From the NCBI GenBank assembly GCA_027490575.1, contig JAIXXV010000032.1, positions 13,211 to 77,210 of the forward strand: 64,000 bases of DNA, read 5' to 3'. The number at the start of each line of letters is the position of its first letter. The stretch's first letter is position 1. Positions 12,459-16,128 of this stretch are shown piece after piece. The notes under the pieces were generated by a model. It was not told where the DNA came from, did no database searches, and saw only the letters and a list, made by a program, of their open reading frames with translations. Both the position numbers and the translations under genes were made by a program. The stretch is from a bacterium. Lineage in GTDB: Bacteria > Patescibacteriota > Minisyncoccia > Phycocordibacterales > CAIZLB01.

Positions 12459-13832
12459 CTAATTGCTCACCTCCAACTTCCTCGCAACCCATTTAGTCAA
12501 AGGCGGTTGTATCACCAGAGTCATAATTATCACCCACATACCTATTGAGATAAGCATTTCAGGGTTACCAATATCGTATTTTGTCAAAAGACCACTGTAT
12601 GCAACTTGCACAAGAAGTACTGCTGGGATAACGCCAGTCTCTCGGACCCATGACATGAAGAGAAGCTCGCGAGTGTTAAGATCAATCTTCTTTGAAAAGA
12701 AACCGAGTGATAGAAATACTGAGGCAGGACGCACGATGAACATAAAGACAAGTCCGGCGAGTATTCCAAACCAAGCGTATTGTAGTAGCATTTGCACATT
12801 GACCAATGCTCCTAGGAGTATAAAGATACTTGGCTTTGCAATCCCCTCCACCAGCTGATTGAAAAATGTTTCTGTCTTGTGCACTTTTTCGTTCAATACA
12901 ACTAGAAGCCCTGCGATGAATGATGCTAAGTAACCACTTCCGCCAAACAGTACCGCAAATGCATATGCCATAATAGGGATAGCGATGAAGAAACCGATGT
13001 CGGCGTGGCACTCCGCACGCATTACCCTTTGTCTAACAAAAAATCGGATTGCAAAGAATCCGATAATACCAACTATTGACCCTACTACTAGCTCTTTTGA
13101 TAGGAAAATCATTGATTCCATAGAGACTAGTGCGCTAATACCTTGTGACATGTGCGTAAAAGCCCCTGCTCTTTCTACATACGTGATAAATGCCAATGTG
13201 ACCAAAGTACCAACCACGTCCGTCAATGCACTTTCTGAAACCAAGATGTCTTTGATACGGTCTTTCTTGAGCTTAAGCTCTTTGAACACAGGGATGATGG
13301 CTGCTGGATCAGTCGATGCAAGTATTGCCCCCAAAAGTAGTGCTAGCGACACGGACATTGTCATACCTGTCACTGTGCCGAGGACCGATAGACCTTGTGC
13401 CATAAAGAGAGTAGATGCCACAAGTCCGATGAAAGATAGTAGTACGGTAGGTAAAACTATTTTTCTAAATGATGAAAACGATATCTCCAAGCCTCCACCA
13501 AAAAGTATATATACCGCTGATATAGTAACTATCATGTTTAGAGCTGCGCTGTTTTCTATAAGTGGTTCCAACAAGTTGTGCATACTTAAACCTATAAACA
13601 AGGCAACTAGAAACGATGGAAATATTGTCCCCCTAGAGAGCGAGTGACAGATGGTACCCAGAAGAAACATTCCTCCTATCAAAAACAGTGGGGTTATACC
13701 CCCTACATGATCCACAGGAATCATTTCCGAATACTGTACAAACAATGCATTGAATATTGCAAAAACCGTAACACTGGTCAAAAGTATAAATGATGATGAA
13801 TGTCTCTTAAGCTTGCTTAGTTTGGCTATCAT
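12459..13832 (-). CDS. Na+/H+ (cation:proton) antiporter, CPA1/NhaP family
   Basis: About 12 TM helices and a typical CPA1 core (ILFGGGLE...ILASTDPAAIIPV). Confidence 0.8.
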   Translation of the reverse strand: MIAKLSKLKRHSSSFILLTSVTVFAIFNALFVQYSEMIPVDHVGGITPLFLIGGMFLLGTICHSLSRGTIFPSFLVALFIGLSMHNLLEPLIENSAALNMIVTISAVYILFGGGLEISFSSFRKIVLPTVLLSFIGLVASTLFMAQGLSVLGTVTGMTMSVSLALLLGAILASTDPAAIIPVFKELKLKKDRIKDILVSESALTDVVGTLVTLAFITYVERAGAFTHMSQGISALVSMESMIFLSKELVVGSIVGIIGFFAIRFFVRQRVMRAECHADIGFFIAIPIMAYAFAVLFGGSGYLASFIAGLLVVLNEKVHKTETFFNQLVEGIAKPSIFILLGALVNVQMLLQYAWFGILAGLVFMFIVRPASVFLSLGFFSKKIDLNTRELLFMSWVRETGVIPAVLLVQVAYSGLLTKYDIGNPEMLISIGMWVIIMTLVIQPPLTKWVARKLEVSN

Positions 13833-14024
13833 ATTGGTGATTAATTTTTAATATATCTTTTCTAAAAAATCAAAAAACCACATGGCGCGCGGCTTTTGTA
13901 TCTGAGGAGAAAATGATCGATGAGCTGATTTGAGATCAGACCACCAACTTTCTCAAACTGAGTTCTAAACCTTTTAGTTACATCAGTACTCAAGTCGTGG
14001 AGGCTATAATTATATTGATTCTTG

Positions 14025-14046
14025 TGGGCGGTAGAGGATTCGGTCC
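14025..14046 (-). repeat. Partial duplicate of the tRNA-Val 3' end (T-arm/acceptor fragment)
   Basis: TGGGCGGTAGAGGATTCGgtCC here versus TGGGCGGTAGAGGATTCGaaCC at 14181-14202. Confidence 0.6.
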
Positions 14047-14180
14047 TTACAGGACCAGTACAGGTTTCCTATTTTCTCAAAGCTCGACAAATCTCGCTTT
14101 TCAAAAATATAGGATAACCTTTTCGAATCCTCCAGAAGCGATGCTTCTGCCGCCTATAACCGTACTTCGTACGATCACTG

Positions 14181-14253
14181 TGGGCGGTAGAGGATTCGAA
14201 CCTCTGACATCAACAACGTCAATGTTGCGCTCTACCAACTGAGCTAACCGCCC
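14181..14253 (-). tRNA. tRNA-Val (anticodon GAC)
   Basis: Reverse complement GGGCGGTTAGCTCAGTTGGTAGAGCGCAACATTGACGTTGTTGATGTCAGAGGTTCGAATCCTCTACCGCCCA folds as a cloverleaf. The anticodon loop is TTGACGT. CCA is not encoded. Confidence 0.85.
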
Positions 14254-14361
14254 ATGCCCTGTTTTTGTCTAGTTTTACAGCTTTATATCTTACCTTTCAG
14301 TAAATATATCGACTAGTAATTTTTAACAAAACGCATTTTTTAGTGTAGCAAATACACGTAA

Positions 14362-15195
14362 TTATTTCAACATAAATTGACACATTATTGCCATATGATC
14401 TGAAACATTACCTACAACCTTTGCTTTGTCTAGGTAAAACCTATTTCCTGAGAACATACAGTCTACCACTAGCATTAACCCGCCTGCTCTATGCAAGGTT
14501 TTATCAATTGTGGTTTTACAATCTTTTGGAACATTGTCGTTAAGGATACTGGACAAGCTATCGTACAGACACTTCCCTCTTGGTGAATTCAGGTCACCGC
14601 AAAGTATCGTGTTTTCTAAATCTTTTTTTGATAAAAAGTTTATAAGATTTTCATAATGACGCATTTGTTCACCTGTAACCCCCCCTTTACCAGACCAAGT
14701 AAAGTGAATATTTGCTATTGAAAAAGACGTTTCCCTTTCCTTCCCATTTACTACAAAATTTGCCAAAGTTAAATTTCTTCGATAAGTTTCCGAGTGTTTA
14801 TTTTTGTCATGGTAAACAATCTCTTTATCTGGAAAATCTCCATAGGAAAAAATCTCACTTGAGCCTATTTTGTGTTTTGAAAGTATCAATGTCCCTGATT
14901 TTGAGAAATCATACTTTTCTAAAGCACCTTTTTCTTCATTTACTACTATTTCATAATGATTCATCAGCTTACTATAAAGAAAATCACCTGTAGGCGTCAT
15001 GGTCTTTTCCTTGTAAGGTAAAATGGTTGCCGGCGAAAATAAATGGTGATGCATATTCAAGGAATGAGAGAGGTAATCTATATCTTTCTCAAAGACCTCC
15101 TGTAGACAAGCAACGTCTGGGTTTTGCTCTTTTATGAAAGGTATAAATTTGTCAAAATGCTTATCCAGTTCAATGTTTAATGTTATAACTTTCAT
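14362..15195 (-). CDS. Endonuclease/exonuclease/phosphatase (EEP) family protein
   Basis: N-terminus MKVITLNI...NPDVACLQEV and a C-terminal SDHMAI motif are typical of the EEP fold. Flanked by two tRNA genes. Confidence 0.7.
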   Translation of the reverse strand: MKVITLNIELDKHFDKFIPFIKEQNPDVACLQEVFEKDIDYLSHSLNMHHHLFSPATILPYKEKTMTPTGDFLYSKLMNHYEIVVNEEKGALEKYDFSKSGTLILSKHKIGSSEIFSYGDFPDKEIVYHDKNKHSETYRRNLTLANFVVNGKERETSFSIANIHFTWSGKGGVTGEQMRHYENLINFLSKKDLENTILCGDLNSPRGKCLYDSLSSILNDNVPKDCKTTIDKTLHRAGGLMLVVDCMFSGNRFYLDKAKVVGNVSDHMAIMCQFMLK

Positions 15196-15322
15196 AGATT
15201 TATGATTACTAATATATCATAAGTCAGAAAATCACCTTACCTTTATATATTTTGCTTTTTTTAACAAAAATGTTATATTGTTGACCACGCAATGGCTGTA
15301 TAGTACAGCTTGAGCAAACCAT

Positions 15323-15385
15323 GGCCCTATCGTCTAACCTGTTTAGAATATAGCGGACACGGCCTTTTCAATGAAAAGGTAGGTT
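15323..15385 (+). pseudogene. tRNA-Glu 5'-half pseudo-copy (D-arm with insertion plus anticodon arm; no T-arm or acceptor 3' strand)
   Basis: GGCCCTATCGTCTAAC...GGACACGGCCTTTTCAA repeats the first ~40 nt of the downstream tRNA-Glu, then diverges into a CCTTTTCAATGAAAAGG hairpin. Confidence 0.55.
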
Positions 15386-15403
15386 TGGTAAAAAACAATA
15401 TAT

Positions 15404-15475
15404 GGCCCTATCGTCTAACGGTTAGGACACGGCCTTTTCAAGGCTGTAATCGGAGTTCGATTCTCCGTAGGGTCA
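15404..15475 (+). tRNA. tRNA-Glu (anticodon TTC)
   Basis: GGCCCTATCGTCTAACGGTTAGGACACGGCCTTTTCAAGGCTGTAATCGGAGTTCGATTCTCCGTAGGGTCA folds as a cloverleaf. The anticodon loop is TTTTCAA. Confidence 0.85.
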
Positions 15476-15584
15476 CAGATTTTAACGAACAAAGTGAGTA
15501 TAAAATCGTGATGCAGGGGTACTTCATATTTTCGAGCTTGCAATGAAAATATGTTAGTACCAGCTGCGCACAGATTTTAACGAA
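15474..15584 (+). repeat. 16-bp direct repeat CACAGATTTTAACGAA (15474-15489 and 15569-15584) flanking ~79 bp, starting at the tRNA-Glu 3' end
   Basis: Exact 16-nt duplicate. The first copy overlaps the discriminator and 3' end of tRNA-Glu, giving an att-site-like footprint. Confidence 0.5.
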
Positions 15585-15684
15585 ACAGTTCTCAAGCATA
15601 TAAATCTTTTTTTGCTTACATAGCTATCACAATCATAAGTAAAAAGGGGTTGAAAATCAGATTATTTGATATACTTACTTCTAT

Positions 15685-16128
15685 ATGGAAACCAAAAAAG
15701 TAGGAGCTGGTTTTGGAATAATGATACTCCGAGACAATAAAGTATTACTCGGACAAAGACACATTGACCCCGAGAAAGCTGACAGTGAATTAAACGGCGA
15801 AGGCACGTGGACTATGCCCGGAGGAAAACTAGAGTTTGGAGAAAGCTTCGAGGAAGGAGCAGTGAGAGAAGTTCAAGAAGAGACGGGTATAGATTTAGAC
15901 ATAAAGGATGTAAAGGTTATTAGTCTTTCCAATGATATGGTTCCGACTGCTCATTTTGTAACTATCGGTCTTTTGTGTTTAAACTGCCCACAAGATCCGA
16001 AAGTAATGGAACCTGACGAAATAACCCAGTGGAACTGGTTTGACTTAGAAAATCTTCCTGAACCACTTTTCGAGCCAAGTAGAAAGATTATTCAAAATTA
16101 TTTGAGCGGTGTGTTTTATAATGGTTAA
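15685..16128 (+). CDS. NUDIX hydrolase
   Basis: Nudix box GGKLEFGESFEEGAVREVQEETG. Confidence 0.8.
   Translation: METKKVGAGFGIMILRDNKVLLGQRHIDPEKADSELNGEGTWTMPGGKLEFGESFEEGAVREVQEETGIDLDIKDVKVISLSNDMVPTAHFVTIGLLCLNCPQDPKVMEPDEITQWNWFDLENLPEPLFEPSRKIIQNYLSGVFYNG

Follow-up and report, generated by a model that had tools for sequence, protein, structure and literature searches.

The tRNA 3'-third foldback element, a structured family lying directly behind tRNA genes of Patescibacteria

What do partial tRNA copies beside intact tRNA genes record? The question arises in a 64,000-nucleotide stretch of a Patescibacteria genome (assembly GCA_027490575.1, contig JAIXXV010000032.1, positions 13,211 to 77,210; hereafter the window), where a tRNA-Val gene and a tRNA-Glu gene each adjoin partial copies of themselves. 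A sequence-only reading had likened these copies, a structured spacer and a 16-bp direct repeat to footprints of tyrosine-integrase-type insertion and excision, with a nuclease gene as possible leftover cargo. We found that the minus strand from 14023 to 14178, behind tRNA-Val, is an intact copy of a widespread structured family of about 100 to 135 nt that lies directly 3' of Patescibacteria tRNA genes. We call this family the "tRNA 3'-third foldback element." The copy in the window is probably a member of a new family that is insertion-derived and RNA-structured.

The tRNA-Val and tRNA-Glu genes are divergent, and a gene for a 277-aa Exo_endo_phos protein separates their 5' ends. The three genes are as follows.

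14181 to 14253, minus strand: tRNA-Val(GAC), intact (ARAGORN; Rfam tRNA match of 71.1 bits); its 3' third (positions 51 to 75) is duplicated and mirrored in the element.
14362 to 15195, minus strand: EEP-family gene, 277 aa (Pfam Exo_endo_phos, E = 2.8e-10); not part of the element.
15404 to 15475, plus strand: tRNA-Glu(UUC), intact (ARAGORN, Rfam).

The partial copy of the tRNA-Val 3' end is real and, at 25 nt, a little longer than the 22 nt first claimed. The segments 14023 to 14047 and 14179 to 14203 are 92% identical (23/25, with 20 nt exact), and their starts are 156 bp apart. The insert between the copies is 131 bp long and contains no open reading frame (ORF). The minus strand of 14015 to 14180 folds at -66.3 kcal/mol (z = -7.6), a value equalled by 0 of 200 shuffles. 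The hairpins and motifs picked out earlier on this strand were all found: GGATTCGAA (14123 to 14131), CAGAAGCatcGCTTCTG (14133 to 14149) and GGTCCtgtaaGGACC (14042 to 14056). The first of these had been called T-loop-like. The motif exists, but as the T-loop and T-stem in reverse complement, not as a copy of them. The spacer had also been said to look like a decayed tRNA or tRNA-like element. However, ARAGORN and the Rfam tRNA model (E <= 10) found no tRNA at 14023 to 14178 and matched only the two real tRNAs; the spacer is instead an intact member of a conserved, covarying family. Its parts are as follows.

14156 to 14178, minus strand: spacer hairpin GUGAUCGUAC-GAA-GUACGGUUAU, from the fold; C-GAA-G triloop and three G-U pairs.
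14150 to 14154, minus strand: acc5' arm GGCGG, from the fold; complementary to the tRNA-Val acceptor 3' strand CCGCC, positions 67 to 71.
14133 to 14149, minus strand: H1 hairpin CAGAAGC-AUC-GCUUCUG, from the fold; sits between the two target-complementary arms.
14124 to 14132, minus strand: T5' arm GGAGGAUUC, then junction GAA; reverse complement of tRNA-Val 57 to 65 (54 to 65 including GAA); helix 1.
14062 to 14120, minus strand: P3 long hairpin, from RNAalifold; tandem G-A pairs near the tip; helix 2.
14057 to 14061, minus strand: junction GUACU, part of the 20-nt core.
14042 to 14056, minus strand: P4 hairpin GGUCC-UGUAA-GGACC; helix 3; covaries in diverged copies.
14042 to 14061, minus strand: 20-nt core, GUACU plus P4; exact 20-mer in at least 120 metagenome stretches.
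14023 to 14047, minus strand: direct copy of tRNA-Val from about 51 to 75; 23/25 bases identical; the ancestral flank then continues.
14032 to 14134, minus strand: match to covariance model R1, 77.2 bits, E = 1.5e-18; the sole significant match in the 64-kb window.

The window copy has every part that defines the R1 family, namely, the T5'/T3' closing helix, GAA, P3, GUACU, P4 and the tRNA-derived 3' strand, and its fold recovers all family helices. The 3' strand of its P4 is tRNA positions 52 to 56, with A and C in place of U54 and U55. At the H1 position, most family copies have a hairpin whose sequence varies. Because the spacer hairpin has no U-run, it is not a terminator in the window.

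The family exists, and covariation supports its structure. The 20-nt core, GTACTGGTCCTGTAAGGACC, has at least 120 exact matches among metagenome contigs; the 18-nt ACTGGTCCTGTAAGGACC inside it has no exact match in viral contigs. Across 637 kb of fetched loci, R1 matched 112 copies at E <= 1e-5; the window has a single match. A 56-sequence alignment (A1) gave an RNAalifold consensus with compensatory changes. Alignment A2 was fitted to R1, which inflates its paired percentages; in it, pairing covers 92.5% of cells, and both sides have changed in 17 of 19 pairs. The A2 covariation score was 0.528, compared with 0.159 for shuffles (reached by 0 of 500) and at most 0.114 for slid controls. All 7 pairs of P3 changed on both sides, with 93% of cells paired. 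Five diverged copies, folded singly, showed the same architecture (z from -3.8 to -9). Across the family there are 166 G-U or U-G pairs and 25 A-C or C-A pairs. Therefore, the tRNA-sense strand, as RNA or single-stranded DNA, is the folded one. In diverged copies, P4 reads GGTCC/GGACC, GAACC/GGTTC, GAAGC/GCTTC, GAATC/GATTC or GAAGT/ACTTC. This covariation identifies the P4 3' strand as tRNA positions 52 to 56.

On the tRNA-sense strand, the first half of the family order is the reverse complement of tRNA 66 to 73, H1, the reverse complement of 57 to 65, GAA and P3. The second half is GUACU, the reverse complement of 52 to 56 (the P4 5' strand), the UGUAA loop and a direct tRNA copy from about 51 to 74. 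Read from its sequence, the element is a foldback of the tRNA 3' third, made of an inverted and a direct copy, that bears two extra hairpins.

The family tracks tRNA genes closely. Upstream sequence reached at least 300 nt for 103 copies. In 87 of these, a tRNA gene on the same strand ends no more than 300 nt upstream, compared with 6% of random positions. The gap between tRNA and element is typically 45 to 80 nt, and the neighbor tRNAs represent 29 isoacceptors. The sequence 3' of P4 copies the neighbor tRNA from G57. This copy is exact over 17 to 28 nt in about 25 loci and degenerate elsewhere, and its identity usually ends at N73-C74. Fifteen loci carry two to four copies, with tandem arrays in L103, L035 and L039.

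The arms follow the functional tRNA rather than the downstream copy. We compared T5' arm pairing in the 47 copies whose downstream T3' differs from tRNA 57 to 65. The arm paired better with the intact tRNA in 42 (about 8 of which are extra-hairpin variants with imprecise T3' extraction), equally well in 5 and worse in none. The spacer/arm region formed a mean duplex of -9.9 kcal/mol with positions 66 to 73 of its own tRNA, compared with -7.0 kcal/mol for other tRNAs (p = 3e-12) and -7.0 kcal/mol for the downstream copy (p = 2.5e-7). Complementarity between the 5' arms and the functional tRNA persists even where the downstream copy decays. The arms match C74 and the genomic trailer after it, and not CCA, as L103 and the window show. 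Therefore, the arms are maintained against the gene or precursor sequence and not against the mature tRNA. The same match excludes a primer-binding site for mature tRNA, as in a retroelement. We also considered that the downstream copy derives from mature tRNA, but CCA occurs in 6 of 45 downstream copies and 2 of 45 upstream genes, which is not a significant difference.

How did the element come to lie behind tRNA-Val? A search with the nearby Na+/H+ exchanger gene (12459 to 13832) found four loci in Patescibacteria metagenome-assembled genomes, at 55 to 76% identity. These loci (L001 to L004) and the window form our comparison set; loci with higher numbers are other fetched loci. L001 and L003 lack the 156 bp at tRNA-Val, and the tRNA there runs straight into CACAAGAA...CCTCCACGACTT. 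In the window, this flank comes after the second tRNA-Val 3' copy. Therefore, it is the window that gained 156 bp, as a 131-bp insert plus a 25-nt duplication. Judged from these flanks, the gain left the tRNA intact and displaced its old 3' end downstream. R1 places an element after tRNA-Glu in L001 and L004, at neither tRNA in L002 and L003, and after tRNA-Val in the window. This variable presence at orthologous tRNAs means that the element is insertion-derived and variably present.

The tyrosine-integrase-type footprint proposed earlier thus survives in part. Insertion into the tRNA-Val 3' end with restoration of the tRNA stands, since L001 and L003 lack the 156 bp, but no integrase was found nearby. 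A direct repeat does bound the insert, as in tRNA-integrative elements, whereas an integrase inside or adjacent to it was found neither in the window neighborhood (Pfam, 8 flanking proteins) nor among about 90 related loci. Like tRNA-3'-end tyrosine-integrase elements and their gene-less, cis-mobilizable derivatives, the family duplicates the T arm and the rest of the tRNA 3' of it, restores a functional tRNA and displaces the old 3' end downstream. It also accretes in tandem at one tRNA and occasionally has accessory genes between copies. Unlike them, it is a unit of only about 130 to 156 bp, with no integrase found and with an interior that is a fold conserved in sequence and structure. It also contains an inverted target copy, which att arms do not, and uses one scaffold for 29 tRNAs.

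Two other kinds of mobile unit invite comparison. Miniature inverted-repeat transposable elements have terminal inverted repeats and a short target-site duplication. Here, the arm and the downstream tRNA copy make up an inverted repeat that derives from the target and differs at every tRNA, and the duplicated segment is 18 to 25 nt and not 2 to 10. Many near-identical copies per genome were not seen: the copies on one contig (L066, L068, L071) are strongly different. As in integron attC sites and the CTX-phage attP hairpin (a dif mimic), covariation preserves structure under changing sequence, folding of the strand restores a duplex version of the target site, and copies can part accessory-gene cassettes (L033, L111). 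In contrast to those sites, the element has a tRNA gene as its target, and sequence conservation is high in its core junction and P4. The family consensus shows no evident R or L boxes, and the neighbor ORFs yielded no IntI or Xer-type partner.

We suggest that the insertion reading fits best because it accounts for matched direct and inverted copies at 29 tRNAs, for tandem arrays and for the presence/absence pattern. Within this explanation, there is roughly an even chance that the unit is a small non-autonomous insertion element, or a descendant of one, entering tRNA genes by means of a trans-acting recombinase or nuclease, with target-matched arms and protein-recognized P3 and P4. Such a putative enzyme would open the tRNA gene between the T-loop and the 3' end, and the tRNA would be regenerated. 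The target-complementary arms would either specify or record the target, and the conserved P3/P4 junction would be the part recognized by the putative protein partner. The folded species would be the element transcript, made with the tRNA where no terminator intervenes, as in the window. A model with an integrase protein only does not explain arms that track their target. The arms may guide target choice, may have arisen by foldback copying at insertion, or may have a resident RNA function as a processing signal or in antisense control of the precursor.

Several points weigh against this explanation. The tRNA-Glu copies of L001 and L004 keep their fold despite changed P3 sequence; they look vertically inherited, which argues for function in place over selfish turnover and indicates long residence with selection in place. 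Copies on the same contig are strongly diverged in P3 and H1 (L066, L068, L071), and only tandem neighbors are alike. Therefore, there was no recent transposition burst. Many loci have an intrinsic terminator that parts the element body from the tRNA, and co-transcription with the tRNA is therefore not general. When the 486 neighbor ORFs of about 90 loci were clustered, no recombinase, reverse transcriptase or transposase was linked to the copies. The fit of A2 to R1 belongs here as well, and the 20-mer core is partly invariant by ascertainment, since it served as the search key.

A possible but doubtful alternative, built on the sequence of the arms, is that the element is the RNA or single-stranded DNA part of a nucleic-acid-guided system aimed at tRNA genes, with a putative enzyme encoded elsewhere. 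In this scenario, pairing of the H1-split arms with positions 57 to 73 of the tRNA, in gene or precursor, would make a three-way junction. The P3/P4 scaffold would recruit the enzyme, insertion would duplicate exactly the guide-covered segment, and a few arm mutations would suffice to retarget another tRNA. The likeness is to IS110 bridge RNA, IS200/IS605 omega RNA and the exon-binding sites of group II introns, in which target-complementary internal segments flank a structured scaffold. The arms of the element are likewise split by a hairpin, so that pairing with the target would create the three-way junction, and they are kept complementary to a live target, as in guide-type RNAs. The target-complementary segments were indeed found to be maintained against the live target. 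Unlike in those systems, neither the window nor the related loci have a DEDD recombinase, TnpB/IscB or intron-encoded protein next to the element, and there is no Rfam match to those RNAs. The element is also much smaller, and its target is duplicated over about 18 to 25 nt.

It is rather unlikely that the element is not mobile at all and is a resident functional RNA, a cis-encoded partner of each tRNA that is rarely gained and kept by selection. Such an RNA could be an RNase P/RNase Z "punctuation" substrate that frees the tRNA 3' end of the transcript downstream of it, or an antisense regulator or sponge for the precursor 3' third. Where the downstream copy decays, the arms still match the functional tRNA perfectly, which points to purifying selection on them in place. 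The L001 and L004 copies, which retain structure through P3 turnover, speak for this reading as well. The excess of G-U over A-C pairs, the age and divergence of same-genome copies, and copies within operons also favor a resident RNA; in L071, tRNA-Thr is followed by the element and then by the elongation factor Tu gene. In addition, the closing helices imitate an acceptor/T minihelix, which is the minimal RNase P substrate. Like mascRNA, viral tRNA-like structures and the 3'ETS-leuZ trailer, the element lies in a tRNA trailer. It has an acceptor/T-like stacked helix that ends at the discriminator base and C74, and is plausibly excised by tRNA-processing enzymes. However, it has no cloverleaf, the T-loop U54 and U55 are replaced, and half of the helix is an antisense tRNA copy. 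The best tRNA-like Rfam matches in 13500 to 16000 (E <= 10) fall only on the real tRNAs. A resident RNA also leaves unexplained how 29 tRNAs each gained matched direct and inverted copies, and why there are tandem arrays, solo copies by Abi and Fic genes and presence/absence among five related genomes. Terminators often part the tRNA from the element, and arms that match the trailer and not CCA make action in trans on mature tRNA unlikely.

The least favored explanation but one, a very improbable one, is the remnant of an integrase-borne island. A large element at the tRNA 3' ends would have been nearly all deleted, leaving att-like repeats, a scrap of arm and the EEP gene as cargo. Integration by tyrosine integrases classically duplicates the tRNA 3' end starting at the T arm, and relatives do differ in what lies between the two tRNAs. 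In L001 and L003, tRNA-Val and tRNA-Glu are immediate divergent neighbors, 228 and 142 bp apart, without the EEP gene, and L002 has a different ORF between them. This part of the sequence-only reading is supported. The EEP gene, correctly described as the only sizeable gene between the tRNAs, is also rare, with 12 homologs at E <= 1e-10 in a 5.8-billion-protein database (best non-self identity, 41%), and its GC content of about 33 to 36% is below the roughly 40% of its flanks. An islet of 3.7 kb between element copies in L111 also favors an island. Nevertheless, the roughly 130 nt between the repeats are not random, because the same covarying fold recurs at more than 100 loci and 29 isoacceptors, and no integrase lies near the locus or among the neighbors of about 90 loci. 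The EEP gene itself was not bracketed by the repeats as proposed, since both tRNA 3'-end repeats are on the sides facing away from it. It lies 5' of both divergent tRNAs and outside every duplication, and the contig of its best non-self homolog carries no tRNA and no element. The view of it as leftover cargo is unsupported. It is an independently variable gene, unrelated to the element, and is probably a recent acquisition.

A decayed tRNA pseudogene or simple local tandem duplication of tRNA-Val would account for the repeated 25 nt and the GGATTCGAA motif, but it is extremely improbable given that both tRNA searches were silent there, that the motif is a reverse complement of T-loop and T-stem, and that H1, P3 and the core, which make up the interior, bear no relation to tRNA and are conserved across unrelated tRNAs.

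Two further features lie beside tRNA-Glu.

15321 to 15401, plus strand: tandem duplication of 81 bp upstream of tRNA-Glu; pseudo 5' half, positions -2 to 38, with the D-loop replaced.
15484 to 15574, plus strand: element B, a lineage-restricted structured insertion; GAGYGA-TATAWWWTCGTGATG, a long hairpin and ...CACA, flanked by the 16-bp repeat.

The 5'-half pseudo-copy of tRNA-Glu exists as described. A 16-nt replacement divides its two exact blocks (15321 to 15338 = 15402 to 15419 and 15355 to 15371 = 15425 to 15441). The pseudo-copy has no significant fold (z = -1.25), and neither ARAGORN nor Rfam (E <= 10) found a tRNA at 15321 to 15385. The duplication reaches through the anticodon loop and is window-specific, being absent from L001 to L003. 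Its junction is the palindrome CCUUUUCA-A-UGAAAAGG (15363 to 15379), given also as the perfect CCTTTTCA-A-TGAAAAGG. This palindromic junction echoes the left-end junctions of many copies of the foldback element.

The 16-bp direct repeat CACAGATTTTAACGAA is likewise real, at 15474 to 15489 and 15569 to 15584, and two copies in the window compare with 0.05 expected by chance. It is not a shared att core, since these are its only window copies and they flank their own small hairpin element. The 79 nt between the repeats form a hairpin (z = -5.1). Model R2, made from element B and two relatives, matches only the window, L002 754 to 847 (minus strand) at tRNA-Glu and L004 5234 to 5326 (plus strand) at tRNA-Val. 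We rejected element B as a degenerate member of the foldback family because R1 does not match it; its hairpin tip resembles the P3 tips of that family. It is a second element of tRNA trailers and is lineage-restricted. It carries a promoter-like TATAWWWT motif.

Some observations concern variants and neighbors of the foldback family. In a sub-family (L006, L017, L031, L074, L084, L117 and others, with GATAAGCGTACTCGCGG after P4), an extra small hairpin with a second GTACT lies within the copied T-loop. A further conserved module (..GAGGCGGGGTCG..GTGACC..) is nested upstream of the core in L007, L019, L023, L027, L028 and L090 (815 to 912), which suggests modular, composite family variants. The window sequence CGTACGAAGTACG (14162 to 14172) fits the motif GA-RC-GNA-GY-GA, a C-GNA-G triloop mini-hairpin between G-A pairs (for example, GAGCGTAGCGA and GAACGAAGTGAG), which also occurs in spacers and P3 tips of L008, L014, L034, L050, L098, L100, L103, L113 and L119. 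This mini-hairpin may be a shared protein-binding or stability module.

Solo copies adjoin accessory genes. These are Abi_2 in L033 (1 to 3082) and, in L111 (3181 to 8003), a helix-turn-helix (HTH) protein and KilA-N beside Fic; the genes for the HTH protein and KilA-N lie in the 3.7-kb islet bounded by element copies. Such islets are somewhat like gene cassettes parted by recombination sites. We considered an associated protein among the clusters of LepA, CCA-adding enzyme, UPF0102 and HTH proteins, but these are housekeeping genes that reflect the conserved synteny of a tRNA-Arg/Gly/Pro cluster, and the window encodes no homolog of any of them. Ten loci (L095 5217 to 5900, L061 1439 to 2122, L112 3176 to 3856, L069 102 to 782, L032 6518 to 7195 and five others) encode diverged versions of a protein of about 225 aa (median pairwise identity, 28%) with an N-terminal resolvase/transposase-type HTH. 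It lies directly 5' of a tRNA in most of them, with differing tRNA identities, and the window lacks a homolog of it too.

Three genomes share a conserved segment (CCTCCACGACTT..GTACTGA..) that lies between the Na+/H+ exchanger gene and tRNA-Val, at 13868 to 14002 on the minus strand of the window, L001 6785 to 6870 and L003 6899 to 6978. It ends in an intrinsic terminator (13873 to 13897), and the window copy has an extra insert of about 50 nt. Rfam has no match for it. A role in regulating the exchanger gene, as a leader or riboswitch-like element, is conceivable.

Is the foldback family already known? Rfam 15 has nothing that overlaps the element in the window at the gathering score, in 13500 to 16000 at E <= 10, or in nine canonical loci at E <= 1. 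Group I and II introns, small self-cleaving ribozymes, tmRNA, HEARO and IS605-related/omega RNA were rejected for want of an Rfam match, and a hammerhead core was rejected by eye, because the junction strands (GAA, GUACU and none) do not fit. A phage or plasmid origin was rejected as well, with no blastn match in phage or plasmid collections and no exact 18-mer in viral contigs. We found no description of the element in open-access papers or bioRxiv. Group I introns in anticodon loops are treated in PMC13011429, which does not describe the element; PMC12455944 mentions neither tRNA nor integrase and does not describe it either. The family is uncatalogued and apparently undescribed.

Patescibacteria are ultra-small bacteria that make up a large share of bacterial diversity, with tiny genomes and little non-coding DNA. 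Many of their tRNA genes nonetheless bear this element of about 130 nt. On any reading, it is a large, well-supported RNA-structure family absent from Rfam, and its partial tRNA copies can pass for pseudogenes or att sites when tRNA-adjacent sequence is annotated. If the element is mobile, it would be a compact, protein-less module that targets essential genes harmlessly and can border islets of defense genes. If the arms guide, they would offer a new and simple scaffold for programmable targeting, and a guided system would be a new class of guide-directed mobile element or tRNA-directed ribonucleoprotein in Patescibacteria. If it is a resident RNA, it would mark an unrecognized step of tRNA expression or processing in these bacteria.

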